Assembly (NCBI GenBank): GCA_944332485.1
Contig: CALVKB010000002.1
Span: 11,044 to 75,043, forward strand
Direction of reading: 5' to 3'
Source of the DNA: an uncultured Bacilli bacterium
Lineage (GTDB): Bacteria; Bacillota_I; Bacilli_A; RFN20; CAG-288
DNA: 64,000 nt
Shown here: positions 1 to 13,306 of the stretch, one piece after another
How positions within the stretch are numbered: the stretch's first letter is position 1
Layout of the letters: each line of letters begins with the position of its first letter
The notes under the pieces: model-generated
What the model was told of the DNA's origin: nothing
The model's database searches: none
Seen by the model: the letters and a program-made list of their open reading frames with translations, nothing else
Program-made: the position numbers and the translations under genes

Positions 1-188
1 CTTTAAATAAAGGTGAGAATTATTCACTTGAAATTTACATCGACAATAGTGCAATAGAGATATTTTTAAACAATTACAAGGACTCAATATCCTTATTGAG
101 TTTTTCAAAAGGTGACGGCTTTGAAATAATACCAAAACAAGATATCGATTTATCAATTCAAATTGCAGATTTCGATTCAGCAAAATAA
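1..188 (+). CDS. 3' end (partial) of an upstream gene; C-terminal beta-sandwich resembling GH32 sucrose-6-phosphate hydrolase / beta-fructofuranosidase
   Basis: Frame 3 is open from the window edge to TAA at 186-188. The translation ...NKGENYSLEIYIDNSAIEIFLNNYKDSISLLSF... resembles the GH32 C-terminal LxxFVDRSSVEVFxNDG motif. Confidence 0.4.
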   Translation, partial: LNKGENYSLEIYIDNSAIEIFLNNYKDSISLLSFSKGDGFEIIPKQDIDLSIQIADFDSAK

Positions 189-330
189 ATTGTCAATTTA
201 TTCTTACACGCTTTAATAAAGTAAAATTTATATTAGAACAACCACACTTTATTCAAATTTCATACCATGAAAAAGAATAAATTTTCTCTTGCAAAAATCT
301 ATTAATATTGATAACATTAATTAAGTGTCT

Positions 331-406
331 GGTCCGTTAGCTCAGTTGGTAGAGCAACTGACTCTTAATCAGTGGGTCAAAGGTTCGAGCCCTTTACGGA
401 CCACCA
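331..406 (+). tRNA. tRNA-Lys (anticodon CTT)
   Basis: Cloverleaf read by eye: acceptor GGTCCGT/ACGGACC, D-arm GCTC-AGTTGGTA-GAGC, anticodon stem ACTGA/TCAGT with loop CTCTTAA (U33, CTT at 34-36, A37), T-arm AAAGG-TTCGAGC-CCTTT, encoded CCA. Confidence 0.85.
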
Positions 407-645
407 TTAGAGTTAAGTATAGTCGATACGAAAGTATTGGCTGTTTTTTTCATTTCTAGGGATAAATACTGCAAATATTAATGATTTTATTGGTATTTTG
501 GCCCTAGAAATAGAAAAAGTAGAAGATATATCTATAGTAACAATAATATATATATAAAATCAAATCGTTATTATTATTAATTGTTAAACTACTACTTACT
601 ATATATAGGCATATATAAGAATATGTATTTTTTCAAGTATACCCC

Positions 646-671
646 CACGTGATACGTGACAAACGTGACAC
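646..671 (+). promoter_or_regulatory. Direct repeats of ACGTGA(C/T) (CACGTGATACGTGACAAACGTGACAC); a fourth ACGTG overlaps the -35 at 752-756. Candidate operator for the adjacent XRE repressor.
   Basis: Three tandem ACGTGA(T/C)A units plus a palindromic CACGTG, 170 bp upstream of the xre gene. Confidence 0.35.
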
Positions 672-755
672 TTTTTTATGACCATTTCTTTTTTATAAAA
701 TAAAGGATTAAAATATATTTAATTCAACCTATAGGTTGATTTTTTATCAAACGTG

Positions 756-784
756 TTGACAATTTGACGAGTGGGGTGTATACT
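756..784 (+). promoter_or_regulatory. Near-consensus sigma70-type promoter (TTGACA-17 nt-TATACT) driving the xre-immA operon
   Basis: TTGACA at 756-761, a 17-nt spacer and TATACT at 779-784; RBS AAAGGAG 8 nt before the ATG at 841. Confidence 0.6.
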
Positions 785-840
785 GTGCTTGTAATCTAAG
801 AAATGACGTCAAAAATAATGATTACAAAAGGAGCGAAAAT

Positions 841-1200
841 ATGGGATACACAAAATTCGGAAAAATAGTTAGAAAAGAAATGATTGACCATGATGAAAAC
901 TTATTATCAATTGCTCAATTATTAGGCGTTACTACGTCTTTTGTTTCTGCTGTTTTAACAGGTGGTAAAAGTGTACCAGATAATTGGGTAGATGAATTAT
1001 CTAAACATTATGGTCTAAAAGGCTCTAAATATGATGAGCTTTACGATGCATATTGTGAAAATAAGAAGAATATTAGAATTGATGTTGAAAATGTTCCGTT
1101 AACTCAAAAGAAGTTGGCATTACAATTTCAAAGAAAGCTTCCTGAATTAGATGAAGATGAGATTCAATCTATCTTCGATATTTTAAAGGAGGATAAGTAA
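841..1200 (+). CDS. XRE-family helix-turn-helix transcriptional regulator (ImmR-like repressor)
   Basis: N-terminal HTH (LLSIAQLLGVTTSFVSAVLTGGK). The stop overlaps the start of the ImmA-like gene (ATG at 1200). Confidence 0.7.
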   Translation: MGYTKFGKIVRKEMIDHDENLLSIAQLLGVTTSFVSAVLTGGKSVPDNWVDELSKHYGLKGSKYDELYDAYCENKKNIRIDVENVPLTQKKLALQFQRKLPELDEDEIQSIFDILKEDK

Positions 1201-1769
1201 TGGATTATGAATCAAGATTATCTTTGAGCAGAATACAGGTAAGAGAAATATCTAAATTTGCTAGAAGGATGTTAAAAACTAAAACTGTTAAATTTCCAGT
1301 TTTAAAGGCGCTTGAAAAGTTAATAGATAAATTCCCTAATAATCTTTATTATCGTATTTTGCCCGATGATGAATTTGAGACAAATGTAATGGCAGAATTA
1401 GTTCCAGAAGGCAACGATGTTTACTGCATTAAAATACGTGAAACAGTATATGAAAAAGCAGTAAATGGTGATAGAGCTAGTCTGGGATTTATTTGCCATG
1501 AAATGTGTCATTTTATCTTGATTCATATATTTGATGCTGGCCCAGTAATGTATGTGAATGAAAGCGGGTTAGCTTATGCAAGAAGTTTTAAAGATAAAGA
1601 ATTGCCACGATATAAAAGTATGGAATGGCAAGCTATGGCACTTTGTGGGGAGATAATGATCCCTTACGAAAAATGCAAAGATTATTCATTTAAACAAATT
1701 GTCAGTAGAACTTATAGTTCTGATGAACAAACTAAATATTTCTTAAGATGGGTAGTTAAACCAGAATAG
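1200..1769 (+). CDS. ImmA/IrrE-family zinc metallopeptidase (COG2856-like anti-repressor)
   Basis: HEXXH motif in GFICHEMCHFILIH; gene order XRE-ImmA is typical of phage/ICE immunity modules. Confidence 0.7.
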   Translation: MDYESRLSLSRIQVREISKFARRMLKTKTVKFPVLKALEKLIDKFPNNLYYRILPDDEFETNVMAELVPEGNDVYCIKIRETVYEKAVNGDRASLGFICHEMCHFILIHIFDAGPVMYVNESGLAYARSFKDKELPRYKSMEWQAMALCGEIMIPYEKCKDYSFKQIVSRTYSSDEQTKYFLRWVVKPE

Positions 1770-1968
1770 TATTTATAGTAATTAAATATCTTAATTGAAA
1801 TAAAAAAGACTCAAATCATTGCAGTGATTTGAGCCGTTTAGACAGCATGCTATGATGCCATCTTCAGAAAATACATTATAGCACAACTGTCTTAAAAATA
1901 TCAACTCCTTTGCGAGATTTCCTCGTCAGAAAGGCAAGAAAAATTTTTAAATACAGGAGTTTACTATT

Positions 1969-2655
1969 ATGTACAAAAATGAAAATGATGTAGTTGAAGA
2001 TTCGTTCCAAGCGTTCTTGGTGGAAGGAGCGAACTTCACTGAAATTGAGGAATATCCGATAATTGAAGATTGGATGATTCCAGAAGTTCCGCCAAAAAAG
2101 ATTATGCCTTTTGATAAAGCATTAAATTATCAAGGCGATTTAAGTGATGTATATGTCTGCACATATGCTAGGGATTGTACTTTTGAAAGAGTAAGAAGAT
2201 ACCCAAAGAAATATTTGAACTTTTTCAAAAGATGTGCTGGGCTAATAGGATTTGATTATAGCATACATTCGGATATGCCGATAGTCAAACAAAAGGCCCA
2301 AATGAACGATAATTTATCATTATCATTTTATTATGGAAAACAAGGTAATAATCTTATTCCAAATATAAGATATGGTATTGATGAATTAGCTGATGAATTC
2401 TTAAGTGCTATTCCTAAGCATACATTGATTGCAGTAGGCACACACGGATTCATTAAAGAGACATACAAAAAAGCTGAATGGTATTGTTTCTTAGAAAAAA
2501 TTATAAGTGCATTAGAACCATCAGGTATCATTGCTTATGGTAAACTTAGTGGAAATATCTTTAAAGATTTTGAAGAAAAGTGTAAGTTTTATTATTATGA
2601 ACCATGGATCTACTCTAATCGTAAGAAAAAAGGAGGAGATTCAGATGGCAACTAA
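1969..2655 (+). CDS. hypothetical protein (228 aa), first gene of a translationally coupled trio
   Basis: Intact ORF with RBS AGGAG. No motif recognised with confidence (possibly DUF4417-like). Its stop overlaps the next start by 11 nt. Confidence 0.5.
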   Translation: MYKNENDVVEDSFQAFLVEGANFTEIEEYPIIEDWMIPEVPPKKIMPFDKALNYQGDLSDVYVCTYARDCTFERVRRYPKKYLNFFKRCAGLIGFDYSIHSDMPIVKQKAQMNDNLSLSFYYGKQGNNLIPNIRYGIDELADEFLSAIPKHTLIAVGTHGFIKETYKKAEWYCFLEKIISALEPSGIIAYGKLSGNIFKDFEEKCKFYYYEPWIYSNRKKKGGDSDGN

Positions 2656-3025
2656 AGGTGCAAGTTATAGATATGGAAACACTAAGGGTTCAAATCATCA
2701 AGGAAAAGCAACTGAACATATTAACTATGCTTGGGCTAAAGCTTTTAATAAAGGCGGATTAGATAGACATTTTAGAGATCATGGCAAAGAATTTGATTGT
2801 AAGACTAAAGAAGAATTTGAAGCTAAAGCTTTGAAATTTGCTAATACAGTTGATCGAGAAAATTGTAAAAGTGTTATTGATAAAAATGGCACAACGTATA
2901 AATATAATCCTAAGACCAATGTGTTGGTAGAAGTTACAAAAGATGGCTATATAGTGTCATATAGGCATTATGGTAAGAGCATATGGTATATTTCTAAGAA
3001 AGGAGAAAAGAAATGGATAAAATAA
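2645..3025 (+). CDS. small basic His-rich hypothetical protein (126 aa; start revised to the ATG after AAAGGAGGA)
   Basis: Strong RBS aaaggaggagattcagATG at 2645. Motif GGLDRHFRDHGKEF...YKYNPKTNVLVEVTKDGYIVSYRHYG resembles small standalone nuclease/toxin-like domains (unverified). Confidence 0.5.
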   Translation: MATKGASYRYGNTKGSNHQGKATEHINYAWAKAFNKGGLDRHFRDHGKEFDCKTKEEFEAKALKFANTVDRENCKSVIDKNGTTYKYNPKTNVLVEVTKDGYIVSYRHYGKSIWYISKKGEKKWIK

Positions 3026-3516
3026 ATAAAAAATTTAAACCAATGATGTGTCCTGTCTGCGATGGCATGTATTTTTCAAGGCCAAATAAAAATTCATTCG
3101 ATGAAGATTTAGAAGAATATTTAAATGGTGAAGTACAATGTAGGCATTGCGGATGGATTTATGATTTGCATCAAGCTGAAAATCCTGATTCTAAAGAAGG
3201 ATTCAATGAAATGTCAGTTAATGAATATAAGGAATGGTTTGATAACAAAATTAAAGAAAACCCAAACTATGATTATTTTGAAGAACATATGCCTGAACCA
3301 ACGCCGCATAAATGTCCTGTTTGTGGAGAATTTGAATTTGCTGATGAATTATCATCTGATATATGCCCAGTTTGTGGTTGGGAAGATACTGGGTTTGAAG
3401 ATATGCCTGATGAAAAGCCTAGTGAATATATGATGTCATTTAATGAAAGATTTTCTTGGTTTAAAGAAAAAAGAAAAAATAATCCTAAATATAGATGGGA
3501 CAAGGATGATGATTAA
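3013..3516 (+). CDS. cysteine-rich protein with tandem CPCC-type zinc-ribbon motifs
   Basis: Motifs CPVCDG...CRHCGWIYDL and CPVCGEF...CPVCGWEDTGFEDMP match the CPCC-family pattern (C-P-x-C ... C-x-x-C-x-W-E-D). The start overlaps the upstream stop. Confidence 0.55.
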   Translation: MDKINKKFKPMMCPVCDGMYFSRPNKNSFDEDLEEYLNGEVQCRHCGWIYDLHQAENPDSKEGFNEMSVNEYKEWFDNKIKENPNYDYFEEHMPEPTPHKCPVCGEFEFADELSSDICPVCGWEDTGFEDMPDEKPSEYMMSFNERFSWFKEKRKNNPKYRWDKDDD

Positions 3517-3791
3517 AAAAATGACTCACTGCAAATAGATTAATTTCTAAATGTGGTGAGTCTTTTTAATTGTATTATAAAATTTGATAACACTAGTCAA
3601 GTATAAAATTAAGTAAAATTGTTTGAATTTTTTCCATAACAAAAGATTATCTAATTTACTAGACGCTTTAATTTTTCATTAATAAATCTTTCAATTAAAA
3701 CAACAAGTTTAGTCAATCTACTTTCAAAATATAAGAAAATTTAGATGCTAAAGCGTAATAATAACTATCAATTAAAAAGCAAAGTGATAAT

Positions 3792-3985
3792 ATGAAATGG
3801 GATTACAAAGCTGTAAATATAGTTTATGGTTTAAAACTGGCAGTAGTATAGAAACACTTTTTCAAGAAACTCTGGAACAATATGCTAGAAATGGATGGGA
3901 GTTAGTCACATTCCAATTCTATGATGCTAAATTTATGTTAGTTTTAAAAAAATTAATTTTGGTTTTTTTTAGCAAGTTTAATTGA
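3792..3985 (+). pseudogene. DUF4177-family gene disrupted by a frameshift
   Basis: ATG at 3792 encodes MKWDYKAVNIVYGLKLAVV then TAG. The +2 frame continues ...SIETLFQETLEQYARNGWELVTFQ...FMLVLKK, matching the DUF4177 pattern (MKWEYK...GWELVsv...FKR). Confidence 0.5.
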
Positions 3986-4045
3986 TTAGGTAGCATTTTT
4001 TTATACCGCACATTTCAAAAAATAAAATATAAGTGTGAAAAGAAA

Positions 4046-4520
4046 ATGAAAAAGTATGAAGATTCCTTTTGAAACAAAATCGAAGATTTGCATAACAACC
4101 AGGGAATTAGTATTACAAAATTATCAAAAGATTATCATTTTGATAAACAAACCTATTAAAATTGGTGTGTTAAAAAAAATACGCAAAATAAAGATGAATA
4201 AGATGAAATAATTTTCGATAATCTTGATGATGCTATGAAAGAAATTCTCAAATTAAGACAAACAATTAAAATTGAAAGAGAGAAGGTAAGAGTTTTAAAA
4301 AAAGTAAAGGCAATTGTTCAAGAAGATACAGACTTGCAACATTAAAAGAAATCATTAGCGACAGTTTTCTTTCAATTAGAAGTCTTTATTCCATATTTGA
4401 ATACAATAGAAGAACTTTTTACAATAATTTTGAAAAGAAAAAGAAGTATCTGAAACAAGAAAAACTATCAAAGACTTAACAATTGCCGAATTAGAAGCAA
4501 GTCACAACAAATTTAATAAT
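4046..4520 (+). mobile_element. IS3-family transposase remnant (OrfA region and start of OrfB), with multiple stops and frameshifts
   Basis: Frames give KIEDLHNNQGISITKLSKDYHFDKQTY*NWCVKK (IS3 OrfA HTH, in-frame stop) and leucine-zipper-like ...LKLRQTIKIEREKVRVLKKVKAI..., then YSIFEYNRRTFYNNF (OrfB N-terminus). No DDE domain follows, because the ATPase gene starts at 4523. Confidence 0.6.
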
Positions 4521-4522
4521 GT

Positions 4523-7006
4523 CTAAGTTAAACGTGGTTCTTCAAATTCAAATTTTTTTAAAATTATCTTCCTATATACGTAACTTTTATATTTAAGCAA
4601 AAATCTAAACAAAAACAACAATGAGACTACTAAAACAGGCACTGAAATTAAATAGATTAATATACTCATCCACATGTTGAAATTCAATGTGGTTACATCA
4701 ATTCCAGAGATTTCATATGTCTTATCTTTAAGCACAACAGGTCCGACAAAAACATATATAAAAGCAATTATGATAACTCCAAGAATTATCATCAAAGACC
4801 ATTTGTTAAATGGATAGGAAATTATAAACAACAATGTCCAATTAACAAACAACATACCTATGACAATCGAAGTATTAAGCCCACATGTAAGAACATCGTT
4901 TGCGTTTCCTATAACTGCAATTCCACTGAAGAAATTTGAATAATTCATCAGTAATCCCGCAACAACAACAAAGCACATTCCTATACACCCAGGGAAACTT
5001 TCAAATATCATCTTTTTATAAAAGTCCTTTTTAATCAAAGCATCGTTTGGTCTTAATGCTAGCAAAACACCAGGAACACCTATTCCACATACACTTATCA
5101 AATAAAGGTTGTTCGTTGTAAACATGGATGTGACATTCATCGTCAATCCAAGTATGTTGGTTAAAAATGTTATAAATATACTGAAGAAAGTTCTACTGAG
5201 AAACAAAGATGAACTAGCTTGAATATTATTGATGACTTGTCTTCCTTGTTTAACAACAAATGGCAGTCTGTTAAAATCGTTATCAAGCAAAGTGATGTCA
5301 GCTAAACTCTTTGCAGCTTGACTACCTTCTCCCATAGCAATTGCACAATCAGATTTTTTCAAAGCTAACAAATCGTTGACTCCATCACCTGTCATTCCAA
5401 CATAACTTCCATGCTTTTTCAATTCATCAACAATAACTTCTTTCTGTTCAGGTGAAACTCTGGCAAAAATAGAATATTTTAAAGCTAGTCTTCTTGTTTC
5501 CTCTAAATCGACATTTTGTAAACTAATGCCGTTTTTATATTCCATAAATCCGACTCTTTTAGCTATCTGTTGCACAGTTTGCAAATTATCTCCAGAGATA
5601 ATTTTCAAGTTCACTTCATTTTTATAAAACCATTCTAGAGTATTTTTAACATTCTTTCTCAACTCTTCCAAAATAACGATTACACTTATTAATTTTGTTT
5701 TATCATTATCTTTTTCAACAAAAAATAAAACTCGTTTGCCGCCATCTCTATACTTTGCTAATAAATTGGTAATTTCTTTATTATTTTTAAAATCAAATAC
5801 ATACTCAGGAGCACCTAATATGTATTCAACATTTTCAATCTTCATTTTGCTACATTTTGAAACTGAATCAAATTCACAAACTTCACTAACATTTAGATGT
5901 TCATATTCCTTATTAAAATAAATTTGTAAACTTTGCATCGTTAAATTAGCATCAGCAAAATTATGAACAAAATTATTCATGATATTTTCATAATTTCGAT
6001 CTTTTGACAAATATAAAATATTCTCAACTGTCAATTTATTGGTGGTTAACGTTCCTGTTTTATCCAAACAAAGACAGTCGACTCTCGCTAAGTTCTCTAT
6101 GCTGTAAAGATTATTCACCAAAGTTTTCTTTCTTGCTAAACTGATAACACCTTTTGCCAAAGCCACACTTGTGAGTAAAAACAACCCACTTGGAATCATT
6201 CCAACAACACCACCTGCTGTTTTACTAATGGCATAGGATAAAGGATTATCAAAAGCTAAAATAGGAGTATTGAAATCACCCTGTGGATGCAAAAAATAAT
6301 TATTATAAAAAGCCCAAATAGCTAAAGGTATCAAAATAATCGTTATTATTTTTATCAACTTATTCAATGTTTTGAAAATAGAGGAATTGATGGATTTATG
6401 TTTTTTTGTTTTGTTTTGTAAATTTGATATATATGTTCCATCACCAACTTTTGTTGTTAACATATATCCACTTCCTTTGATAACATATGACCCTGATAAC
6501 AAAAGATCTTCTTTTTTCTTATGCACATCATTGGCTTCACCAGTTAACATGCTCTCATCAACGAACACTTCACCTTGAAGCAAAACACCATCAACAACAA
6601 TCTGTTGCCCGCTTTTAATAAATAATACATCGTTCAAAACAACATCTTCTTTATCAATAGATGTTTTCTTATCATTTCTTACAACTTCAATTTTAGAATC
6701 CGAAACTAATTTCAATTTTTCAATCTGCTTTTTAGCTCTTATCTCTTGAATAATTGCAATCAAAGTATTCAAAACAACAATGACAAAAAAGAATGTCTGA
6801 AAATACCTTTGGCAGATGATCAAAACAATGAAAATTGCAAAAAGTAAAATGTTGAAAAATGTAAAGACATTTCTAAAAACAATATTCAAATAATCGTGTT
6901 GTTTTTTTAATTTAGTTTTATTTGTATTGCCACTTGCAATTTGTTTATAAACTTCTTCATCAGTCAAAGATTGAACTTTATTGCTTTTATAAGTGAACTG
7001 CATCAT
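4523..7006 (-). CDS. cation-transporting P-type ATPase (P2-type, PacL-like), paralog 2
   Basis: CLCLDKTGTLT phosphorylation site, TGDGVNDLLALK hinge, multiple TM helices. The actuator motif reads TGEA instead of TGES. Confidence 0.9.
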   Translation of the reverse strand: MMQFTYKSNKVQSLTDEEVYKQIASGNTNKTKLKKQHDYLNIVFRNVFTFFNILLFAIFIVLIICQRYFQTFFFVIVVLNTLIAIIQEIRAKKQIEKLKLVSDSKIEVVRNDKKTSIDKEDVVLNDVLFIKSGQQIVVDGVLLQGEVFVDESMLTGEANDVHKKKEDLLLSGSYVIKGSGYMLTTKVGDGTYISNLQNKTKKHKSINSSIFKTLNKLIKIITIILIPLAIWAFYNNYFLHPQGDFNTPILAFDNPLSYAISKTAGGVVGMIPSGLFLLTSVALAKGVISLARKKTLVNNLYSIENLARVDCLCLDKTGTLTTNKLTVENILYLSKDRNYENIMNNFVHNFADANLTMQSLQIYFNKEYEHLNVSEVCEFDSVSKCSKMKIENVEYILGAPEYVFDFKNNKEITNLLAKYRDGGKRVLFFVEKDNDKTKLISVIVILEELRKNVKNTLEWFYKNEVNLKIISGDNLQTVQQIAKRVGFMEYKNGISLQNVDLEETRRLALKYSIFARVSPEQKEVIVDELKKHGSYVGMTGDGVNDLLALKKSDCAIAMGEGSQAAKSLADITLLDNDFNRLPFVVKQGRQVINNIQASSSLFLSRTFFSIFITFLTNILGLTMNVTSMFTTNNLYLISVCGIGVPGVLLALRPNDALIKKDFYKKMIFESFPGCIGMCFVVVAGLLMNYSNFFSGIAVIGNANDVLTCGLNTSIVIGMLFVNWTLLFIISYPFNKWSLMIILGVIIIAFIYVFVGPVVLKDKTYEISGIDVTTLNFNMWMSILIYLISVPVLVVSLLFLFRFLLKYKSYVYRKIILKKFEFEEPRLT

Positions 7007-9920
7007 TTACCTTTCGAGGGGCTTTTTTAGTATTAGATTCACTTGAATCAGATTCATCATTATTCTCTTCTTCTTTGCTCTCTTCTGTATTTTCTTTTTT
7101 ACTTTTATCTTTCTTTTTACGTTTGAAAATGTTTCCTAAATATGGTCTATTTTTCTCGTTATTTTCTCTTTCTAAACGATTTAAATCATCTCTGAATAAA
7201 CTGAAGAAATAATCCAAACCTGTAGTCAATAAAGGCAAAGCGAAGACTAAAACAAAGAACATCAACCATGCAATCTTGTTCATCGTTGTGTAATCAAAAC
7301 CAACTAAGAATGAAGGCAATGTGAATGCACAAACGATTGTGGCTGCTAACATTGTGACAAATAATATCATTCGATAAATATTGAATGGAGTACATTGAAT
7401 GTAAAGCATACTCAATGATACAATCAACAAACCGAAAACTTCCAATGTTCTAACGCAATTATAACCAGTTTCAACACCGCCCAACTCAAAGAATCCGTTA
7501 ATATATAACAAACTGACACAACCGACCATAACCAACATCGCTATAGATCCTGGTAATGCTCTTAGAAGTGTGTTCTTCAAGAAATGACCTTTAATAAGAT
7601 TCTTGTTAGGTTGTAAAGCTAAGAAGAATGATGGAATACCAATTCCAAACACTTCCATCAAAATCAAGTTGCTTGGCTGGAATGGATAACTGACCATTTT
7701 ATTCGCCAAATTGATGATGATTATAAATAATGTCAAGCAAACGGTGAAGATAGTCTTCATCAAGAATAAAGATGAAGATCTTTGAACGTTATTGATAACC
7801 CTTCTACCTTCCTCAACAACTTTTGGCATACTGGCAAAATTACTATCAAGCAAGACTAAATGTGCGACATTTTTTGCTGCATCTGCACCAGCGGCCATAG
7901 CAATTGAACAATCAGAATTCTTCATGGCTAAGATATCATTGACACCATCACCAGTCATGGCAACAGTTTTACCATTTGCCTTAAGTGCTTGAACTAATGC
8001 TGCTTTTTGTTCAGGACTGACACGACCGAACACTGTGTATCTTGTTGCCAATTCCTTAGTTTCTTGAATGGAAACACCTTCCAAAGAAACACACTTATCA
8101 GCATCATTGACTCCACAGTTAGCTGCAATGTTACTAGCAGTATATGGATTATCACCGGAGATGATTTTAACGTCAACACCATTTTCATTAAACCATTTGA
8201 TAGTAGCAGGAGCTTCCTTACGGATATGATCCAACAAAATAAAGATTGCAATTGGTCTTGCAGAACCATCGAAACTTCCATCTTTGATGTAAGCTTCGGA
8301 TTTACAAAGCATCATAACACGATATCCAAGTTTCTGCCTTGTAGCGATCAATTTTTTAATCTCTTCATCATTACCTTTATAAACAAATTCCGGAGCACCT
8401 AATAAATATGTTCCGTTATTTTCAAATGAAACTGCTGAGAACTTTCTAGCACTTGAAAATGGGATGGTACTTATAGCACGGTATGTTGTTTTTAAAGGAT
8501 AATAATTTGCTAAAGCGATACTTGTTTGATTGGATTCCTCAAAGGAAGATAAATAGCTTCCCATGATGTCTTCCATCTTTTTGCTATTATCAAAGATAAC
8601 TACTTCACTAACTTTCATCGTACCATCGGTCAGTGTTCCAGTTTTATCTAAACACAGACAATTTGTACGTGCGAGCATTTCAATACAATATAACTCTTGA
8701 ACTAAGGTTTTTGATTTTGACAATCTTAAAATTCCAGCCGCTAAAGCCATGGAAGTTAAAAGGAACAAACCTGCAGGAATCATACCGACCAAGCTACCAG
8801 CGGTAGATGCGATAGCAACGGCAACCTTTCCAGTTTGACCCCATATTTCAGTGACATTAGCACTGCGGTAATTTATCCAAAATAAGATAATACCGATTGG
8901 AATAATGATTATGGATATAACTTTGATAATTCCGTTCAAACTTTTAACTAACTCACTTTTCGGTTTTGAATATTTTTTTGCTTGTTGTTGCAAAGCGTTG
9001 GCATAACAAAGAGAACCGACTCTTTCAACTTGACATGTACAAGAACCAGAGACAACGAATGATCCAGCTAAAACCATATCACCGACTTTCTTTTTAACAG
9101 CTAAACTTTCACCTGTCAAAAGTGATTCATTAACTTCGATTTGACCAAATTTAACAATTGCATCAGCACCGATTTGATTACCAGTTGAAAGTAACATTAT
9201 GTCATCCAAAACTAATTCTTCAGTTGGGATGTTCAACATTTCACCATCACGGATAACCTTGGCATTAGGTGCTGTAACCAATTTTAATTTATCGATTGTT
9301 TGTTTAGCTCTGACTTCTTGAATAATTCCGATGACAGTATTTGCAATAGCAATAATCATGAAAAAGCAATCTGATATCTTTCCAACAGAAAGCAAAGCGA
9401 CTGCTATTGCAAGCAAAAGAATATTGAAGAATGTGAATACATTCGTATATATAATTTTCCAGTAAGTTTTAGTTCCAGAATTTGGCTGTTTATTTGTTAA
9501 ATCGTCCTTAATTCTTTGTTCAACATCACTTTTCTTCAAGCCTATTTCAATTTCAGGAAGATATCTAACTGCATTTAAAAGCTTATTTTTCTCTTTGTTG
9601 GAAAGTTCCTCTTCACTTTCTTTCTTCTGTTTTTTTCTAGCGTTTTTCTCAAGTTTTCGCAAAACTTTCTCTTCCATCTCAGCTTTATTAGCTGCTAAAG
9701 AATCATCATTTGAATTGATGGTTTTATTTTTAACAGTTTTTGTTTTTGATAAACTACCTTTTTTATTCTTCTCTTTAGCCTCTTTCAAAGCTTTAGCAAT
9801 GTCCTCTTTACTCATAACTTGAGTGGATTTTATTTGACTTTGCTCCTGATTTTTCAAGTTTTGTTTAACTACTTTGACCTCGTTGGTACTTTCAGCAGAA
9901 TTGTTTGTTTTCTCTTCCAT
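6987..9920 (-). CDS. cation-transporting P-type ATPase (P2-type, PacL-like), paralog 1, with a ~150-aa K/E-rich N-terminal extension
   Basis: TGES, CLCLDKTGTLT, MTGDGVNDILAM. It overlaps the downstream paralog by 20 nt. Charged low-complexity tails at both termini. Confidence 0.9.
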   Translation of the reverse strand: MEEKTNNSAESTNEVKVVKQNLKNQEQSQIKSTQVMSKEDIAKALKEAKEKNKKGSLSKTKTVKNKTINSNDDSLAANKAEMEEKVLRKLEKNARKKQKKESEEELSNKEKNKLLNAVRYLPEIEIGLKKSDVEQRIKDDLTNKQPNSGTKTYWKIIYTNVFTFFNILLLAIAVALLSVGKISDCFFMIIAIANTVIGIIQEVRAKQTIDKLKLVTAPNAKVIRDGEMLNIPTEELVLDDIMLLSTGNQIGADAIVKFGQIEVNESLLTGESLAVKKKVGDMVLAGSFVVSGSCTCQVERVGSLCYANALQQQAKKYSKPKSELVKSLNGIIKVISIIIIPIGIILFWINYRSANVTEIWGQTGKVAVAIASTAGSLVGMIPAGLFLLTSMALAAGILRLSKSKTLVQELYCIEMLARTNCLCLDKTGTLTDGTMKVSEVVIFDNSKKMEDIMGSYLSSFEESNQTSIALANYYPLKTTYRAISTIPFSSARKFSAVSFENNGTYLLGAPEFVYKGNDEEIKKLIATRQKLGYRVMMLCKSEAYIKDGSFDGSARPIAIFILLDHIRKEAPATIKWFNENGVDVKIISGDNPYTASNIAANCGVNDADKCVSLEGVSIQETKELATRYTVFGRVSPEQKAALVQALKANGKTVAMTGDGVNDILAMKNSDCSIAMAAGADAAKNVAHLVLLDSNFASMPKVVEEGRRVINNVQRSSSLFLMKTIFTVCLTLFIIIINLANKMVSYPFQPSNLILMEVFGIGIPSFFLALQPNKNLIKGHFLKNTLLRALPGSIAMLVMVGCVSLLYINGFFELGGVETGYNCVRTLEVFGLLIVSLSMLYIQCTPFNIYRMILFVTMLAATIVCAFTLPSFLVGFDYTTMNKIAWLMFFVLVFALPLLTTGLDYFFSLFRDDLNRLERENNEKNRPYLGNIFKRKKKDKSKKENTEESKEEENNDESDSSESNTKKAPRKVNDAVHL

Positions 9921-10083
9921 AATAAATCTCCTGAATCGTGTGATTATTGTTCAATTTTCACTTATTTTATTATAAACAATAAGAATATTGTTTAAGTATT
10001 ATCAATAAAATAAAGCTTGTTTTTCATTTGATAATAATTGAACTTTAAATTTTGTAAAATAAATAAAGCTCAAGGTAAGGAAA

Positions 10084-10743
10084 ATGAGAAATCTAAGAAT
10101 TTGTTTTGATTCAACACTCGATAAAGATTTTATGGAAGGCGTGATTGATTCATTGAATTTCAATGGTCTTTCAAAAGAACTTTTCGTCATCTGTGGAGGT
10201 GGTAATAATTTTTATCTCACTTTGAAATTAAACAGCAAGAAAATTTATAAAGAAGAGATTGATTACTACAAATCAATACCTAACACTATCACTAAAGAAG
10301 AACCTTACTTTTTTGTTTGCTTAACTGAGATTAAAGCCAATGAAAACATCAAAAAACCTCAGTATTTTTTCTTGAATATGAAGGAGAAAAATTACTGTTT
10401 GAAACTTTTGATGGCTGGTAAATTGTACGTTGAAAATAAATCTTTGATAGGTAATTACTATTACTGCTCCCCTCGCTACACCGATATAATCGGTATGTTT
10501 CCGATGTTCTCCGATTACACAAAATTTCTTGGAATAATCGTCTGCAAAAAAGAAAATGTCAATTATATAAAAGAATTATTGAAAAATACCCCTTGTTTCA
10601 TAATGCTGCTTGTTCAAGAAGATTCTACATATGAAAGTGGGGTCAAACAAGCTTCAGTTTTAGCAAAATTTATCAAATCAAACAAACTTTTAAAAAATGT
10701 GAACTCATTACAAAATACCATCGTTGAAAATTACGATTTATAG
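10084..10743 (+). CDS. hypothetical cytoplasmic protein (219 aa)
   Basis: Intact ORF with RBS AAGGAAA, no recognisable motif; first gene of a tightly packed five-gene + strand operon. Confidence 0.5.
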   Translation: MRNLRICFDSTLDKDFMEGVIDSLNFNGLSKELFVICGGGNNFYLTLKLNSKKIYKEEIDYYKSIPNTITKEEPYFFVCLTEIKANENIKKPQYFFLNMKEKNYCLKLLMAGKLYVENKSLIGNYYYCSPRYTDIIGMFPMFSDYTKFLGIIVCKKENVNYIKELLKNTPCFIMLLVQEDSTYESGVKQASVLAKFIKSNKLLKNVNSLQNTIVENYDL

Positions 10744-10751
10744 GAGATTAT

Positions 10752-11498
10752 ATGGAAACTCTTTTGAAAGATTACTTAAGTAAAATTCGTGACGAAAATT
10801 CAAACTACTTCGCTGGAAGTGCCTGTTTCTTAATCGAATACCTCGAATTATCAAAAATCAAATACATGTTCAATAATATCACATTGCCATCATTGGATAA
10901 AACAAGATATTATGTATTAAATATGATCGATGAAGATAGTAAATTATTCGATTTAACATCTTCAAATAATAAAGATAAGATGGTTGAAGATTATCAAATT
11001 GTAACATCATCAGTTGATAATATTCTAGGGCTGTATAATTCCTGCAAAGAATGTTCTACTATCATTAACAACTACCCTTATCTTTTGGAAGCTAATATCT
11101 ATTTGAAATCCCTTATCAACGATTCTTTACTTGAACATCCATATGATCTTAGCGACATTTCAGTCAACATTGATTTACCTTGCTTCACAACTGATGTGAC
11201 AAAATTAACAAAAAAGTATATCGCTTTAACTACCATAGCATTATTTGAAAAACTCGTAAAAAGAAAAAGAAGATTTAAAAATGTCGATAACTTACCTTTA
11301 GATGAAACACTGATATTGACTGATAAAATCTTAACTAATAGCAGTTATACAACTGAAGAACTTAACAAATTGAAAAAATATCTTTTGATAATTCAAGGAA
11401 AGATAAAATCATCTATTAAGAAAGATTATCTTCTCTGCTACAAAATCTTAAAACAAATCTTACAGGAGGAAGAATACAATGCACAATTATTTTTCTAA
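10752..11498 (+). CDS. hypothetical cytoplasmic protein (248 aa)
   Basis: Intact ORF with RBS TAGGAGA; no recognisable motif. Confidence 0.5.
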   Translation: METLLKDYLSKIRDENSNYFAGSACFLIEYLELSKIKYMFNNITLPSLDKTRYYVLNMIDEDSKLFDLTSSNNKDKMVEDYQIVTSSVDNILGLYNSCKECSTIINNYPYLLEANIYLKSLINDSLLEHPYDLSDISVNIDLPCFTTDVTKLTKKYIALTTIALFEKLVKRKRRFKNVDNLPLDETLILTDKILTNSSYTTEELNKLKKYLLIIQGKIKSSIKKDYLLCYKILKQILQEEEYNAQLFF

Positions 11499-11814
11499 AT
11501 TTGAAACATTGATCGATTTACAAAACTCAAAATACGCTCAAGCTTATCGTTATAAAAATAACACTTTTTACATTGAAAACAATTTCAATGAAGTTTTCAC
11601 CAGATTAGAAAAGATCCTTCCTGAAGAATTTGAATTAATTAAGAAGGAACTATTCAATCAGATTGAAAAAAACAAATTAGTTGTATTTTGTATAAATGAA
11701 GAATACACTCCAATATACAGACCAGATGCAATATTTTTGACATTGATTGATTTAGCGAATAAAGTCAACGTCGATATTGAAAACAAATCTCGTGGAAGCG
11801 ATTATGGCGACTAG
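11479..11814 (+). CDS. hypothetical protein (111 aa)
   Basis: Intact ORF with RBS CAGGAGGAAG; overlaps both neighbours. Confidence 0.45.
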   Translation: MHNYFSKFETLIDLQNSKYAQAYRYKNNTFYIENNFNEVFTRLEKILPEEFELIKKELFNQIEKNKLVVFCINEEYTPIYRPDAIFLTLIDLANKVNVDIENKSRGSDYGD

Positions 11815-13306
11815 AAAAACTTTTAAAAAAGTTACTGTTTGTATATTACTATCTTTCACTTTGCAAAGTTGTTCTCTTTTTGATAAACAAGTTTTAGTTG
11901 ATATTCCGCAGGATGTTTTAAATTTACCATTAAAACAAGCCAAACAAGAAAATCTGCTTGAAAACGAATTTAATCCAACAACTGTCGATAATAAGCTGTA
12001 TAACAAAATTAAGGATTCAAATGAAATCTTGGTTTTACCATATGAATATTTAGAACAAACTGCACCAATAAATTCATATTCAGCTATAAACTTTGCTTTC
12101 AATTCACAAACCGAAATATACGTTGGAGTAAAGCCGTATTTTCAAAACACATCAAACAATTTAAACTTAGATTTTAAAATTGCTACTGATGCAAATAACA
12201 ATTATTATAATTCTAATTTTAAATTTGTTGAAACCGCACAGAAATTTATTGATGATAATAAATCCGATTTACTTTTAACTTATTTAATTTATGATGGTTT
12301 GAACAATTACAAAACTTTAACCAATACTAACTTAGAAGAACTATACGATTCAAATAATGATGGATATATCGATTCAATCTTCTTCACGCCTTTTTTAAAT
12401 CATTTTTCAAAATCCACATTTTCTGAAACTTTGAAAAATCTTTTAACTTCTAAAACATTCACTTACACACCAACTCAAGCCGATCAAATCAAATCTGAAA
12501 TAGAAGAATACACAAATAGAACTTTCGATTTCACAATCTCTACTGCCTCCTTTTCTTCGTTTTATTATTTAACTGAAGTTAATGATTTGTATAGGGTGAA
12601 TGGTCTCTCCTGTTACAATCATCAATTTATCTATGAAATTGCCAGACAATTCAATATGTCGAATTTACAAGGAAACGATAAAACAAATCCGCTTGGCATG
12701 AACTTTTTATCCTCTGGGATGGTTGGAGATATCGATGCATTCAATAAAATTAAAATGGGTTTAACAACTCCCTATATTATCAACAGTGAAGGCAAGTATG
12801 AATTGAAACAAGATTCAAATTACGTATATTTAATTCCAAAAAAACTCAACTACAATATCAATTCAATTTACGATGAGTATCTTTTAATCACATATTACGA
12901 TGGAATGAAAAATCCAAATATTCATAAAGACACTGGATTTTACTCAAATTATGTGCTGAATAACAAATCTGGGTTCATCGTATTTGCCTGTGACAATAGA
13001 CTCCAATATTTAAAGAACAATCTTTATCAAACCTTAAATACTCAAACAGATAATTACGATCCAAACACAGAATATGTCAATGTTACTTCACAGAAAGTTG
13101 AAAATAAAAATTACTTGGTTCAAATTCTAGATGAAAATAACGACAACTCTATTCTTAAAAATGGCATAATTAAAGACTCTGATTTCTTCATTGATAGAAC
13201 ATCTTTGTTTGTAAATACATTCACTAATTTTACATTTTCAACTGAAATTGACTACAAATTGTACTTTCAAGAAGCAAACGAAATATTTTATTTATACTTA
13301 AAATAA
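11804..13306 (+). CDS. lipoprotein, catalytically degenerate paralog of the downstream M6-like metalloprotease lipoprotein
   Basis: Start revised to MATRKTFKK...LSFTLQSCSLF (lipobox). It shares the DSNNDGYIDSIFF motif with the next gene, but the zinc motif is degenerate (FIYEIARQF versus FIHETGHML). Confidence 0.6.
   Translation: MATRKTFKKVTVCILLSFTLQSCSLFDKQVLVDIPQDVLNLPLKQAKQENLLENEFNPTTVDNKLYNKIKDSNEILVLPYEYLEQTAPINSYSAINFAFNSQTEIYVGVKPYFQNTSNNLNLDFKIATDANNNYYNSNFKFVETAQKFIDDNKSDLLLTYLIYDGLNNYKTLTNTNLEELYDSNNDGYIDSIFFTPFLNHFSKSTFSETLKNLLTSKTFTYTPTQADQIKSEIEEYTNRTFDFTISTASFSSFYYLTEVNDLYRVNGLSCYNHQFIYEIARQFNMSNLQGNDKTNPLGMNFLSSGMVGDIDAFNKIKMGLTTPYIINSEGKYELKQDSNYVYLIPKKLNYNINSIYDEYLLITYYDGMKNPNIHKDTGFYSNYVLNNKSGFIVFACDNRLQYLKNNLYQTLNTQTDNYDPNTEYVNVTSQKVENKNYLVQILDENNDNSILKNGIIKDSDFFIDRTSLFVNTFTNFTFSTEIDYKLYFQEANEIFYLYLK

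Follow-up and report, generated by a model that had tools for sequence, protein, structure and literature searches.

The segment at positions 401–3582 of the window, the whole 64,000-nucleotide (64-kb) stretch that was analysed, is in our judgement likely to be the stranded part of a mini-island, and its cargo one self-contained, regulated toxin–immunity conflict cassette. An earlier note had described a decayed island beside tRNA-Lys(CTT), holding a prophage-like immunity pair and moron genes; as a whole that reading is partly supported, and its island part is largely right. Most of the features it listed were present. The tRNA, the ACGTGA repeats, the gene order, the three overlapping open reading frames and the ATPase start at 4523 are as it stated. 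The one coordinate slip concerns an inverted repeat, which is real but had been placed at ~454–500. The features are listed below; L029, L030 and L031 are loci from genomes of three other species.

331–406, + strand: tRNA-Lys(CTT) (ARAGORN; Rfam tRNA 73 bits), with the element inserted at its 3′ end
401–3582, + strand: shared mobile unit, apparently from a serine-recombinase mini-island of which the left part is retained (blastn against L029, L030 and L031)
419–451, + strand: element-borne hairpin and T-run, now terminator of the tRNA (terminator scan); conserved in L029–L031 right after unrelated tRNAs
453–461 and 502–510, unstranded: inverted repeat TTTCTAGGG / CCCTAGAAA, left arm (read from the sequence)
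647–652, 654–659 and 663–668 (region 647–669), + strand: three ACGTGA(C) direct repeats, candidate end-binding sites
724–739, unstranded: palindrome TCAACCTATAGGTTGA, candidate XRE operator, 17 nt upstream of the −35 box
756–784, + strand: sigma-70-type promoter TTGACA-17-TATACT, for the XRE and protease genes (promoter scan)
841–1200, + strand: XRE-family helix-turn-helix repressor, 119 aa (Pfam HTH_31 E 0.0015, below cutoff; PHROG 'transcriptional repressor' 1.6e-5)
1200–1769, + strand: ImmA/IrrE/CapP-like zinc metallopeptidase, 189 aa, protease core only (motifs and predicted fold)
1800–1961, unstranded: structured intergenic element with three hairpins (fold z-score, pair conservation)
1810–1833: hairpin 1
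1840–1892: long inverted repeat with extended −10 boxes on both strands (promoter and terminator scan)
1903–1961: hairpin pairing with the DUF4417 ribosome-binding site
1969–2655, + strand: DUF4417 protein, 228 aa, TIM-barrel-like fold, the toxin's constant partner
2645–3025, + strand: predicted polymorphic toxin, 126 aa, a Gly/Ser-rich leader (MATKGASYRYGNTKGS) followed by a CdiA-CT/MuF-type domain
3013–3516, + strand: predicted cognate immunity protein, 167 aa, double CPCC zinc ribbon (PF14206, 3e-13)
3523–3567, + strand: cassette terminator hairpin GACTCAC...GTGAGTC and T-run (from sequence); IS3-family insertion target in some strains
3583–4522, unstranded: non-shared spacer, not assignable to the element (no similarity to L029–L031)
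3792–3985: frameshifted DUF4177 remnant (frame-repaired peptide, PF13783 E 3.4e-5, 24.4 bits against a cutoff of 25)
4046–4520: stop-riddled IS3-OrfA-like debris (NCBIfam transpos_IS3 E 7e-4, the only match, at the correct N-terminal positions)
4523–7006, − strand: P-type ATPase, chromosomal flank (E1-E2_ATPase 1e-34)

A shared unit at tRNA 3′ ends

Comparison by blastn delimited a discrete unit of 3.2 kb, 401–3582, which recurs in L029, L030 and L031 at nucleotide identities of 98.5%, 96.4% and 95.6% respectively. Outside these positions the rest of the 64-kb window had no match to the three loci. The copies sit behind tRNA-Pro, tRNA-Tyr and tRNA-Glu, and in all three the left edge of homology falls exactly on the terminal 3′ ACCA of the tRNA. 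Cassette relatives were also found 370–440 nt behind tRNA-Trp, tRNA-Cys and one tmRNA gene. Conspecific contigs (L001–L005, L008 and L009) have an arrangement identical to that of the window.

L029 carries an intact 522-aa large serine recombinase with Resolvase, Recombinase and Zn_ribbon_recom domains. The protein is CcrB-like (1.5e-35), and its gene ends 27 nt beyond the point where homology to the window stops. In L030 and L031 only residues 480–522 of the recombinase (the last 43 codons) are left, together with the common right end. The intact L029 element is only ~6 kb long and consists of the cassette, the recombinase gene and two or three small open reading frames; serine recombinase homologues also lie near cassettes in the loci of at least four further genomes. 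As the earlier note had it, the recombinase is missing here: tblastn detected no homologue of the relatives' serine recombinase in the 64-kb window, and other recombinase types were screened for in this region only. Because the window lacks the gene that L029 has, it would appear to hold a stranded derivative in which the recombinase gene and the right end are gone and the cargo has been left behind. These sequence comparisons support integration of an element at the tRNA 3′ end and, in this genome, loss of the element's recombinase. The full island would measure about 6 kb and would have been inserted by the large serine recombinase, which would target the position immediately behind the 3′ CCA of a tRNA or tmRNA gene; as the gene is intact in one relative only, its role in tRNA-end targeting is one that we infer. 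The direct repeat of the tRNA 3′ end that had been suggested as an attR was not found in the 64-kb window, with up to three mismatches allowed, and because the recombinase is of the serine type no such copy is expected.

As for the inverted repeat at 453–510, a CCCTAG...CTAGG motif is met again in L029–L031, in the stretch that separates the immunity and recombinase genes. The hexamer CGTGAC/GTCACG occurs five times in the whole 64 kb, two of these at the 647–669 repeats, and is found two or three times, inverted (GTCACG), at the right end of the L029–L031 elements. To the right of the unit, the frameshifted DUF4177 gene and the IS3 remnant that had been counted as parts of the island are present, but lie outside the shared unit. 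The DUF4177 assignment is borderline, and the debris at 4046–4520, which has no Pfam match and no plasmid match, may derive from an IS3 element. At 3530, contigs L006 and L010 depart from the window sequence and continue into the C-terminal end of an IS3 OrfB (rve_2, 3.5e-10).

The five-gene cassette and its control regions

The order XRE, protease, DUF4417 and two small genes was found in eight unrelated contexts and in nearly all of 80 GTDB loci; in almost every locus the protease gene is immediately preceded by an open reading frame of ~120 aa. The pair of XRE repressor and ImmA/IrrE-type HEXXH peptidase is supported, though both proteins fall short of Pfam's curated thresholds; Peptidase_M78 gave E 0.19 for the window protease and a weak match in 17 of 28 relatives (best 2.4e-5). 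The invariant residues of the protease are H100-E101-x-x-H104 and E142-W-Q-A..A-L-C-x-E151, and the top two PDB folds for its AlphaFold model (pLDDT 90) are CapP 7T5T and IrrE 3DTI (probability 1.0, TM 0.51–0.55). The model makes the HExxH protein a minimal zinc protease of the ImmA/IrrE/CapP type. Upstream, the promoter at 756–784 has 11 of 12 matches and is the best promoter-like site of the region, and its TTGACA is conserved in relatives. Of 77 loci, 21 have AACC-N4/5-GGTT in the corresponding position (background 0.0057 per 180 nt), with conserved arms and a variable spacer; in the window the palindrome occurs once, where about one copy is expected by chance.

Genes 4 and 5 are, from their sequences, a polymorphic toxin and its cognate immunity protein. 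Gene-4 products were collected from the loci (64 non-redundant products in 18 C-terminal families), and their Pfam matches include LHH (1.4e-27), Tox-GHH (5.7e-16), EndoU (1.9e-15), DUF6883 (1.6e-13), PBECR1 and Ntox24, while those of gene 5 include SUKH_5 (2.5e-31), DUF4926 and CPCC. Pairing between gene-4 and gene-5 families is strict (Fisher p 3e-170): different toxin families had a gene-5 family in common in none of 1634 pairs, and the CPCC family was present in all nine loci with the window's toxin family. DUF6883 and DUF4926 are a published BECR toxin–immunity pair (bioRxiv 10.64898/2026.08.28.747851); CPCC is absent among the immunity families named in a 2012 survey of polymorphic toxins. 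The window's toxin domain matches PDB 8EY4, a PT-VENN (CdiA) protein, with E 0.013 over 80 residues; in Phage_Mu_F, RHS and VG15 proteins it occupies the very C-terminal end. Its leader MATKGASYRYGNTKGS is nearly invariant within the family. Additional orphan immunity genes follow some cassettes, such as those of L032 and L025.

The third gene encodes a TIM-barrel protein whose nearest fold is TGT/DpdA. Residues 2–16 of the gene-4 products contain 23% glycine, compared with 5.8% in background open reading frames (p 1e-30), and 53 of 64 begin with the motif M-[GAS]-x-[GRK..], compared with 77 of 1415 background frames. A conserved Gly/Ser-rich N-terminal leader is the feature common to many otherwise unrelated toxin domains. 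DUF4417 paired with an "MGGRG..." toxin was found in all five phages examined, from Mycobacterium, Gordonia and Streptococcus, and adjoins terminase genes in four. The gene after DUF4417 begins MGGRGG in Mycobacterium phages WideWale, Artemis2UCLA and LilDestine and in Gordonia phage Remus; it encodes a VIP2-like toxin in WideWale, an HExxH peptidase in Artemis2UCLA and an ADP-ribosyltransferase in Remus. In Streptococcus phage A25, gene 23 is a homologue of a cassette toxin. We found no description of this pairing, and DUF4417 recurs in gut bacteria and phages as a partner, apparently undescribed so far, of toxins with a glycine-rich start.

The intergenic element at 1800–1961 has a fold z-score of −4.2 on either strand, and 81% of its cells are paired, compared with 35–41% in slid controls. 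Both sides change in 20 of its 26 pairs, a result reached by none of 500 shuffles. No Rfam family matches it. Control by the XRE promoter might extend to the DUF4417 operon; that the two gene sets are separated by a hairpin and by additional promoter-like sites counts against this.

Competing readings and comparison with known systems

XRE and ImmA form the classical switch of ICEBs1 and phage phi105. The region could accordingly be a prophage or ICE eroded down to its edge, with a lysogeny or immunity switch and three unrelated surviving morons, and the tRNA, the missing recombinase, the DUF4417 and similar toxins of phages and the presence of the protease family on a few viral contigs would all fit. 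We consider this quite improbable. Across more than 100 genomes the five genes are passed on as one block, which for the most part lies in an ordinary chromosomal setting and has neither phage nor conjugation genes as neighbours, and the intact relative is very short. The phage-database comparison proposed earlier found protease relatives on only 4 of 2.9 million IMG/VR contigs, and the supposed morons are DUF4417 and a strictly paired toxin and immunity protein. A vertically inherited core operon, its mobility only apparent through genome rearrangement or metagenome mis-assembly, might be argued from protease identities that grade smoothly from 98% to 40% across MAGs and from the like arrangement of all conspecific contigs. 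Nevertheless, a unit about 95.5–98.5% identical in DNA lies between unrelated flanks, and in four cases, each with a different and complete tRNA, its left junction coincides with the final bases of that tRNA, as mis-assembly would not bring about; these sequence features largely refute the core-operon reading. DUF4417 similarity, moreover, does not follow protease similarity, and the cassette is spread over both Bacilli and Clostridia. We give this reading hardly any credence.

The remaining alternatives concern what the cassette does. The toxin–immunity pair could stabilize the mini-island by post-segregational killing, with DUF4417 as an accessory without a role in delivery; the XRE/COG2856 pair, a predicted toxin–antitoxin pair, would perhaps take part. 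The toxins are small and cytoplasmic-looking and have no signal peptide, the immunity gene is always directly downstream, and the cassette is carried by a mobile element and persists here despite loss of the recombinase. Such an addiction module is nonetheless improbable, as the domains (CdiA-CT, MuF, RHS, LHH, GHH, EndoU) belong to polymorphic toxins that are secreted or injected, some cassettes are followed by orphan immunity genes, and a conserved leader with a conserved DUF4417 partner, a combination also seen beside phage terminase genes, points to processing or delivery. Inducible abortive infection, with XRE and protease as sensors of infection in the manner of CapH and CapP in CBASS and a DUF4417-armed toxin that, once induced, would kill or arrest the infected cell, is unlikely, though it draws on the CapP-like fold and on Cap10, a defence component with a TGT fold that holds a Gly-rich N-terminus (doi 10.1101/2025.04.06.647259). 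Several genomes with more than one cassette, module shuffling and mobile-element carriage also favour it. Against it, the five proteins have no match among the PADLOC defence models, suicide would be blunted by co-transcription of an immunity protein, and lytic and temperate phages carry the same DUF4417–toxin pair.

We return to the stranded mini-island with its regulated conflict cassette. The probable binding site of XRE is the AACC-N4-GGTT palindrome, which closely precedes the repressor's own TTGACA/TATACT promoter. The protease would cleave XRE in response to stress, for example DNA damage or invading DNA; such induction would set free or arm the toxin, and the immunity protein would guard the carrier. 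DUF4417 would act on the toxin leader by binding, modifying or loading it; the toxin's target and delivery route we likewise infer. The repressor-cleavage step is modelled on ImmA–ImmR, IrrE–DdrO and CapP–CapH. IrrE and CapP have a C-terminal sensor domain, whereas the window protease has none.

An island behind tRNA-Lys that has lost its recombinase

The G+C content of the window is about 30%, and its genetic code is the standard bacterial one. The features that the earlier note had described at tRNA-Lys(CTT) were recovered as it gave them, apart from the position of one arm of the inverted repeat. The locus is laid out as follows.

Features of the locus at tRNA-Lys(CTT), with window positions and, for genes, strand
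331-406: tRNA-Lys(CTT)
419-451: hairpin and T-run, 3′ of tRNA-Lys
453-461 and 502-510: arms of the inverted repeat TTTCTAGGG/CCCTAGAAA
647-668: three ACGTGA repeats
724-739: perfect 16-nt palindrome TCAACCTATAGGTTGA
756-784: sigma-70-like promoter TTGACA-17-TATACT, the top-scoring promoter of the region
841-1200, plus strand: gene 1, predicted XRE/HTH, 119 aa
1200-1769, plus strand: gene 2, HExxH protease, 189 aa
1969-2655, plus strand: gene 3, DUF4417, 228 aa
2645-3025, plus strand: gene 4, predicted toxin, 126 aa
3013-3516, plus strand: gene 5, predicted immunity protein, 167 aa
3523-3567: terminator of the cassette
3792-3985: DUF4177-like remnant, frameshifted
4046-4520: stop-riddled debris
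4523-7006, minus strand: P-type ATPase

A search of positions 1-12000 against Rfam returned this tRNA and matched no other family. All matches in exact-protein look-ups were metagenome contigs of one population, in which the order was the same as in the window: GH32 hydrolase, tRNA-Lys, the five genes and the ATPase. Two P-type ATPase paralogues lie in tandem on the minus strand, at 4523-7006 (827 aa) and 6987-9920 (977 aa), with a 20-nt overlap, and share an 89-nt stretch with 71% DNA similarity.

GTDB was scanned with one genome per species, yielding 108 relatives of the 189-aa protease. Three of the species genomes (L029, L030 and L031) carry a near-identical copy of the window from 401/403 to 3582, with nucleotide identities of 98.5%, 96.4% and 95.6% respectively, and their loci do not match the rest of the 64-kb window. 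These copies sit behind tRNA-Pro(CGG), tRNA-Tyr(GTA) and tRNA-Glu(TTC) respectively, and in each of them the alignment starts at the terminal ACCA of tRNAs that are otherwise unrelated. More remote cassettes of the same clade, with 83-90% identity across the regulatory genes, are placed 370-440 nt behind tRNA-Trp, tRNA-Cys and a tmRNA gene.

On the right-hand side, the similarity among the three copies continues past the point at which the window diverges. A 522-aa minus-strand gene in L029 ends 27 nt beyond this point; its product contains Resolvase, Recombinase and Zn_ribbon_recom domains and is closest to CcrB. Only codons 480-522 of this recombinase remain in L030 and L031, followed by a common right end that is the counterpart of L029 13194-13336. 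The right end holds GTCACG two or three times; this is the inverted form of the ACGTGAC repeat found in the left arm. Past it, each of the three loci has its own hairpin and T-run resembling a tRNA trailer, as expected if the element entered between the tRNA and its terminator and brought the replacement terminator at 419-451 with it. The inverted ACGTGAC copies lie at 13206-13225 in L029, 10526-10545 in L030 and 3484-3503 in L031, and the window retains the left set only (647-669). Their arrangement is that of candidate terminal sites for a recombinase accessory factor or regulator.

No recombinase homologue was detected across the 64-kb window by tblastn with the L029 protein as query, and the right end of the element is absent from the window. 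The earlier note had looked to a direct repeat of the tRNA 3′ end downstream (attR) as a mark of the island. No second copy of the tRNA 3′ end was found in the 64 kb with up to three mismatches allowed, and a general repeat scan gave chance-level matches only. Serine recombinases do not generate direct repeats of the tRNA end, and the lack of a flanking repeat is therefore expected. The proposal of an island at a tRNA without its integrase was itself borne out by the comparison with related genomes that the note had advised: the same unit occupies different tRNA sites, L029 has an intact recombinase and the window has none. The window thus holds a stranded serine-recombinase island whose integrase is gone; insertion at a tRNA or tmRNA 3′ end and differing sites among related genomes are both observed, and of the marks of an island a recombinase at one end is missing from the window.

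Two further observations concern the junctions. The sequence at 300-326, upstream of the tRNA (TATTAATATTGATAACATTAATTAAGT), has 78% identity to that at 3576-3602, at the end of homology (TATAAAATTTGATAACACTAGTCAAGT), which could be chance in AT-rich DNA or a trace of the event that deleted the right half. The tRNA-Glu copy (L031) has coding sequence of much higher G+C after a GNAT gene, from about 4200 to 9509; this MAG contig may be part chimeric, and the element junctions are unaffected.

The DUF4177 remnant and the IS3-like debris had been counted as parts of the island. Both lie outside the unit common to the window and L029-L031, and are not assignable to it. When frame-repaired, the DUF4177 peptide matched PF13783 with an E-value of 3.4e-5 and 24.4 bits, just under the cutoff of 25; its single frameshift lies between 3836 and 3845. 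The IS3 assignment of 4046-4520 comes from one weak NCBIfam match (transpos_IS3, E 7e-4, 18.9 bits against a cutoff of 160, model positions 10-90). This debris had no Pfam match and no plasmid match by tblastn, and no intact copy of it was found in the window or in the fetched loci. In certain strains of the window's population, the terminator hairpin of the immunity gene is interrupted at 3530/3531 by an IS3-family element (contigs L006, 12332-12629, and L010, 4697-4994; OrfB C-terminus, rve_2 3.5e-10, minus strand). Metagenome contigs break at this element, indicating that it is multi-copy and recently active.

A conserved five-gene cassette and its predicted XRE/protease pair

Homologues of the protease with 46-88% identity retain the gene order of an approximately 120-aa HTH protein, protease, DUF4417 and two small genes. 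This order is conserved in eight unrelated chromosomal neighbourhoods, between housekeeping genes (uvrD/asnS, holA, alaS and an H+-pyrophosphatase gene). Among the GTDB loci the upstream HTH ORF is near-universal and DUF4417 comes next in most; loci missed by the narrow DUF4417 model have a divergent DUF4417 subfamily at that position. The hosts include Anaeroplasmataceae and other Bacilli, Lachnospiraceae including Butyrivibrio isolates, Ruminococcus flavefaciens FD-1 and Oscillospiraceae. The five genes form one cassette unit. Searches of the five proteins with PADLOC and NCBIfam gave nothing usable.

These observations bear on what the locus is. A core operon or an assembly artefact is excluded by the junctions at tRNA ends. 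The reading of the earlier note, in which an immunity pair and a trio of morons mark the edge of a prophage or ICE, gave way at its central point, since the five genes stay together as a conserved cassette across unrelated neighbourhoods; such an edge is unlikely because the cassette is constant and the intact relative is only about 6 kb long. Two other explanations concern the use of the cassette: the same parts could possibly serve as an addiction module, or as an inducible abortive-infection system.

A phage origin of the whole cassette was considered separately and rejected. The protease family was found in only two phage records and four IMG/VR contigs, and the comparison loci L112 and L113, when inspected, had no obvious phage genes beside the cassette.

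The similarity of DUF4417 across loci does not track that of the protease, and the start of DUF4417 is the breakpoint at which module variants diverge in their DNA. The regulatory pair therefore recombines as one module and the effector set as another. Two cassettes are present in some genomes and on one contig. Differing cassettes in the same contig or MAG were seen at 1240-2654 and 6899-8365 of L083, and in the paired loci L040 with L049 and L051 with L078, which suggests that several variants accumulate per genome, like other toxin-immunity or defence modules.

The protease has the invariant motifs H100-E-x-x-H104 and E142-W-Q-A-x-A-L-C-x-E151-x-M-I-P, the ImmA/IrrE signature; H100, E101, H104, E142, A147, L148 and E151 are invariant in 28 relatives, with M-I-P next. 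Pfam PF06114 (Peptidase M78) matched the window protease with an E-value of 0.19 and 11.9 bits, under the cutoff of 22, and gave a weak match in 17 of the 28 relatives (best 2.4e-5). Profile-versus-PDB sequence searches with the protease and DUF4417 returned noise only. When a model of the protease (pLDDT 90) was compared with the PDB by Foldseek, CapP (7T5T) ranked first and IrrE (3DTI) second, with a probability of 1.0, TMq of 0.51-0.55 and E-values of only about 1e-2. The protease is predicted from this model to have an ImmA/CapP-type fold, and consists of the core alone, without the sensor domain of CapP and IrrE.

In nearly all loci, the HTH ORF (about 120 aa) ends in a stop codon that overlaps the start of the protease gene. 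In the window, the 119-aa protein, a putative repressor, gave a weak but consistent XRE/HTH match (HTH_31, E 0.0015, 19.3 bits, cutoff 27) and matched PHROG 1468, 'transcriptional repressor' (1.6e-5). Of 77 loci, 21 have an AACC-N4/5-GGTT palindrome some 20 nt upstream of the -35 box, against a background of 0.0057 per 180 nt; between loci the arms are kept and the spacer varies freely. The palindrome at 724-739 is taken as the predicted operator, the single copy in the window not being significant alone. XRE would repress from this site, and the protease would remove XRE upon a stress or invasion signal.

The region between the protease and DUF4417 genes (1800-1961) is conserved and structured, with strong covariation, and folds well on either strand (z-score -4.2). 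Twenty of 26 pairs are altered on both sides, which was reached in none of 500 shuffles, and 81% of alignment cells are paired, compared with 35-41% in slid controls. RNAalifold on the intergenic alignment gave the first hairpin only, and the second required a hand-supplied structure. Within the region are facing extended -10 boxes (TGCTATGAT on the plus strand and TGCTATAAT on the minus strand). The minus strand also has a conserved -35 box and, as a predicted terminator, a hairpin with its T-run; in a further hairpin the ribosome-binding site of DUF4417 is paired. Rfam had no match for 1800-1961. One product of the region could be an RNA of about 65 nt from the minus strand (roughly 1868 to 1800); alternatively, the region could be a leader or switch of the effector operon.

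Predicted toxins, their glycine-rich leader and DUF4417

The gene-4 products, 64 after removal of redundancy, fall into 18 unrelated C-terminal families. Their domains include LHH and GHH HNH-type nucleases, bacterial EndoU, PBECR1, DUF6883, Ntox24, and C80- and JAB-like peptidases, and those of the gene-5 products include SUKH/SMI1-KNR4, DUF4926 and CPCC. DUF6883 is a published BECR RNase, with DUF4926 as its partner (bioRxiv 10.64898/2026.08.28.747851). Loci with the same toxin family had a gene-5 family in common in 144 of 196 pairs, and loci with different toxin families in 0 of 1634. Judged from their sequences, genes 4 and 5 are paired, predicted toxin and immunity genes.

Residues 40-119 of the window toxin align with the PT-VENN (CdiA) protein 8EY4, including the H-x-x-K-H-G-K-E-F motif, with an E-value of 0.013. 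No Pfam model covers this domain. In a profile search of 1.8 billion representatives it was found at the extreme C-terminus of longer proteins, some of which carry Phage_Mu_F (two of ten), RHS or VG15. A CPCC protein is encoded next in all nine loci with the toxin family of the window. From this domain sharing and the CPCC neighbour we read 2645-3025 as a probable toxin and 3013-3516 as its probable immunity protein, the latter by position and co-variation only. No trafficking domain was found by Pfam in the gene-4 products (120-210 aa), which have the leader alone. Fusion of DUF4417 to the toxin by programmed frameshifting was set aside, the toxin (in the +1 frame) having its own strong ribosome-binding site and ATG. 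Some cassettes close with two or three extra immunity-type genes (comparison loci L032, 9849-11154, and L025, 11777-13048), including a homologue of the CPCC gene of the window behind a different toxin family; these look like orphan immunity arrays.

Despite their unrelated domains, the gene-4 products start alike: MGAGFHGGFGNT, MGGRGTFASG, MGSRGAF, MSSRGSY, MGTGKSGRY and MNHGNSGLAHGTSGS, with MATKGASYRYGNTKGS in the window. Glycine makes up 23% of residues 2-16, compared with 5.8% in other ORFs (p ~1e-30), and 54 of the 64 products have G, A or S as their second residue. Apart from the leader, only DUF4417 is constant in the effector set. In the literature it is either a phage-enriched fusion partner of ParB-CTPase folds (bioRxiv 10.1101/2025.10.10.680097) or a plain hypothetical protein. 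By tblastn, DUF4417 was found in 314 phage records, and in all five phages that were opened the gene after it encodes a toxin-like protein.

Phage genes following DUF4417
WideWale gp3: VIP2-like toxin, start MGGRGGKGG
Artemis2UCLA gp2: HExxH peptidase, start MGGRGGGGG
Gordonia phage Remus gp2: ADP-ribosyltransferase, start MGGRGSGGGG
LilDestine gp115: follows the DUF4417 gene gp114, start MGGRGGGGGG
Streptococcus phage A25 gene 23: homologue of a cassette toxin, with its own start MSDKGDKYG

Thus the leader and DUF4417 occur together in bacteria and in phages. In four of the five phages the pair is followed by a small gene, by an HNH gene if there is one, and by the terminase or tail genes. 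The exception is the Mycobacterium phage LilDestine (L119, 2270-3318), in which the pair lies amid a large tRNA gene array, a position that would fit a nucleic-acid- or tRNA-directed activity of DUF4417. The possibility that the leader is an artefact of overlapping frames was rejected: the overlap in the window is 11 nt, and the LilDestine genes do not overlap, yet the product starts with MGGRGGGGGG. In another Streptococcus phage, SpGS-1 (L118, 1976-3797), the gene for a ParB-DUF4417 fusion precedes that for a 248-aa protein bearing a JAB-like HNHPxGS..S.D motif. In this protein as annotated the leader motif GGGRGANF is not N-terminal but internal, at about residue 65, so that either the annotation has the wrong start or removal of a pro-peptide exposes the glycines.

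The invariant residues of DUF4417 (D69, D96, S98, H100, D102, N132, R134 and K163) lie just past predicted strands. We infer that DUF4417 may bind, modify or load the toxin via the leader, and that the immunity protein would shield the carrier. A more specific reading, drawn by analogy with Cap10-CdnD and in our judgement rather unlikely, is that DUF4417 would be a remodelled transglycosylase-fold enzyme in which the glycine-rich N-terminus of the toxin occupies the old nucleobase pocket and is coupled covalently to a nucleobase or nucleic acid. Phage toxins would then be tethered to or loaded beside packaged DNA and injected with the genome, and the chromosomal toxin would be armed or addressed once the switch had acted. 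If true, this would be a second and much wider family of protein N-terminus-nucleobase conjugation, and polymorphic toxins would have a new principle of delivery.

Significance and relation to known systems

The locus thereby passes from a vague "island remnant" to one with exact boundaries, a named lost recombinase and predicted functional cargo. The cassette is common in gut and rumen Firmicutes, in more than 100 species genomes, and is absent from current defence catalogues. Its parts are of known kinds, namely XRE/ImmA switches, polymorphic toxin-immunity pairs and serine-recombinase islands. Neither the defence catalogue nor the searchable literature describes such a five-part assembly, or a short glycine-rich leader as the constant part of a toxin, and searches of the literature for DUF4417, DUF6883/DUF4926, the VIP2-like toxin and mycobacteriophage polymorphic toxins found no account of DUF4417 as a dedicated partner of the leader in bacteria or phages. 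The cassette gives DUF4417 a first functional context, as the constant partner of a large predicted toxin family that shares only the leader. DUF4417 is present in hundreds of sequenced phages, including well-studied mycobacteriophages, and this context is directly testable, since the pair of genes is also present in M. smegmatis phages and in Streptococcus phage A25. It may be linked to a recently discovered chemistry, the handling of a protein N-terminus by a TGT-fold protein, and the role of DUF4417 is potentially the much more novel aspect. A serine-recombinase element that lands behind many different tRNAs is also unusual, and could be of interest as an integration tool.

The regulatory pair resembles ImmR/ImmA of ICEBs1 and phage phi105, DdrO/IrrE of Deinococcus and CapH/CapP of CBASS: in each the XRE gene is directly upstream of, and translationally coupled to, the gene for a HExxH peptidase, and here too there is a palindromic, predicted operator beside the promoter. 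As with CapH/CapP, the pair adjoins an effector module. The window protease differs from IrrE and CapP in being just 189 aa long, without a GAF-like sensor domain, and too divergent for Pfam M78. Whereas those pairs are associated with excision, conjugation, repair or CBASS genes, this one regulates or accompanies a predicted toxin-immunity set, with cleavage of the repressor as the candidate mechanism.

As in the MuF toxins of temperate phages (Jamet 2017, PMC5576092) and in CdiA-CT/CdiI, a constant N-terminal part precedes swappable C-terminal toxin domains. The cognate immunity gene is always next in polymorphic toxin systems, with orphan immunity genes at times, as in the cassettes, and the predicted toxin domain of the window is common to MuF, RHS and CdiA proteins. 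In place of the trafficking modules of MuF, LXG, RHS, T5SS, T6SS and T7SS proteins, however, the constant part is a Gly/Ser-rich leader of about 15-40 residues. The constant partner has a gene of its own, DUF4417, the set is predicted to be controlled by an XRE/protease switch, and there is no evident secretion route.

In Cap10-CdnD of type IV CBASS, as may be the case for DUF4417 and the predicted toxin, a TGT-fold protein lies beside a partner with a conserved N-terminal M(G/S)G(G/S)GG-type glycine motif, and in Cap10 this N-terminus occupies the former nucleobase pocket (Wassarman et al., doi 10.1101/2025.04.06.647259). The cassette, by contrast, has no QueC-like Cap9 or CD-NTase, none of its five genes matching, and DUF4417 has 228 aa compared with at least 325 aa in members of the TGT family. 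We regard this resemblance as a lead, not as membership. In the DNA-guanine transglycosylase system DpdA/DpdB, DpdA works with the ParB-like protein DpdB. DUF4417 is likewise often fused in phages to a ParB-CTPase fold (bioRxiv 10.1101/2025.10.10.680097), as in SpGS-1. It differs from DpdA/DpdB in having no 7-deazaguanine synthesis genes nearby and no sequence-level similarity, and its partner is a predicted toxin, not a restriction module.

The mobile unit itself resembles SCCmec elements of the Ccr type and tRNA/tmRNA islands, which have small cargo, a CcrB-like large serine recombinase at one end, as in L029, a fixed insertion point beside conserved RNA genes, and decayed recombinase-less derivatives such as the one in the window. 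Elements that target the 3′ ends of many different tRNAs or of a tmRNA typically use tyrosine integrases, each of which recognises a single gene. In contrast, the element described here has no flanking direct repeats and a serine-type recombinase, and in near-identical form it uses at least four different tRNAs.
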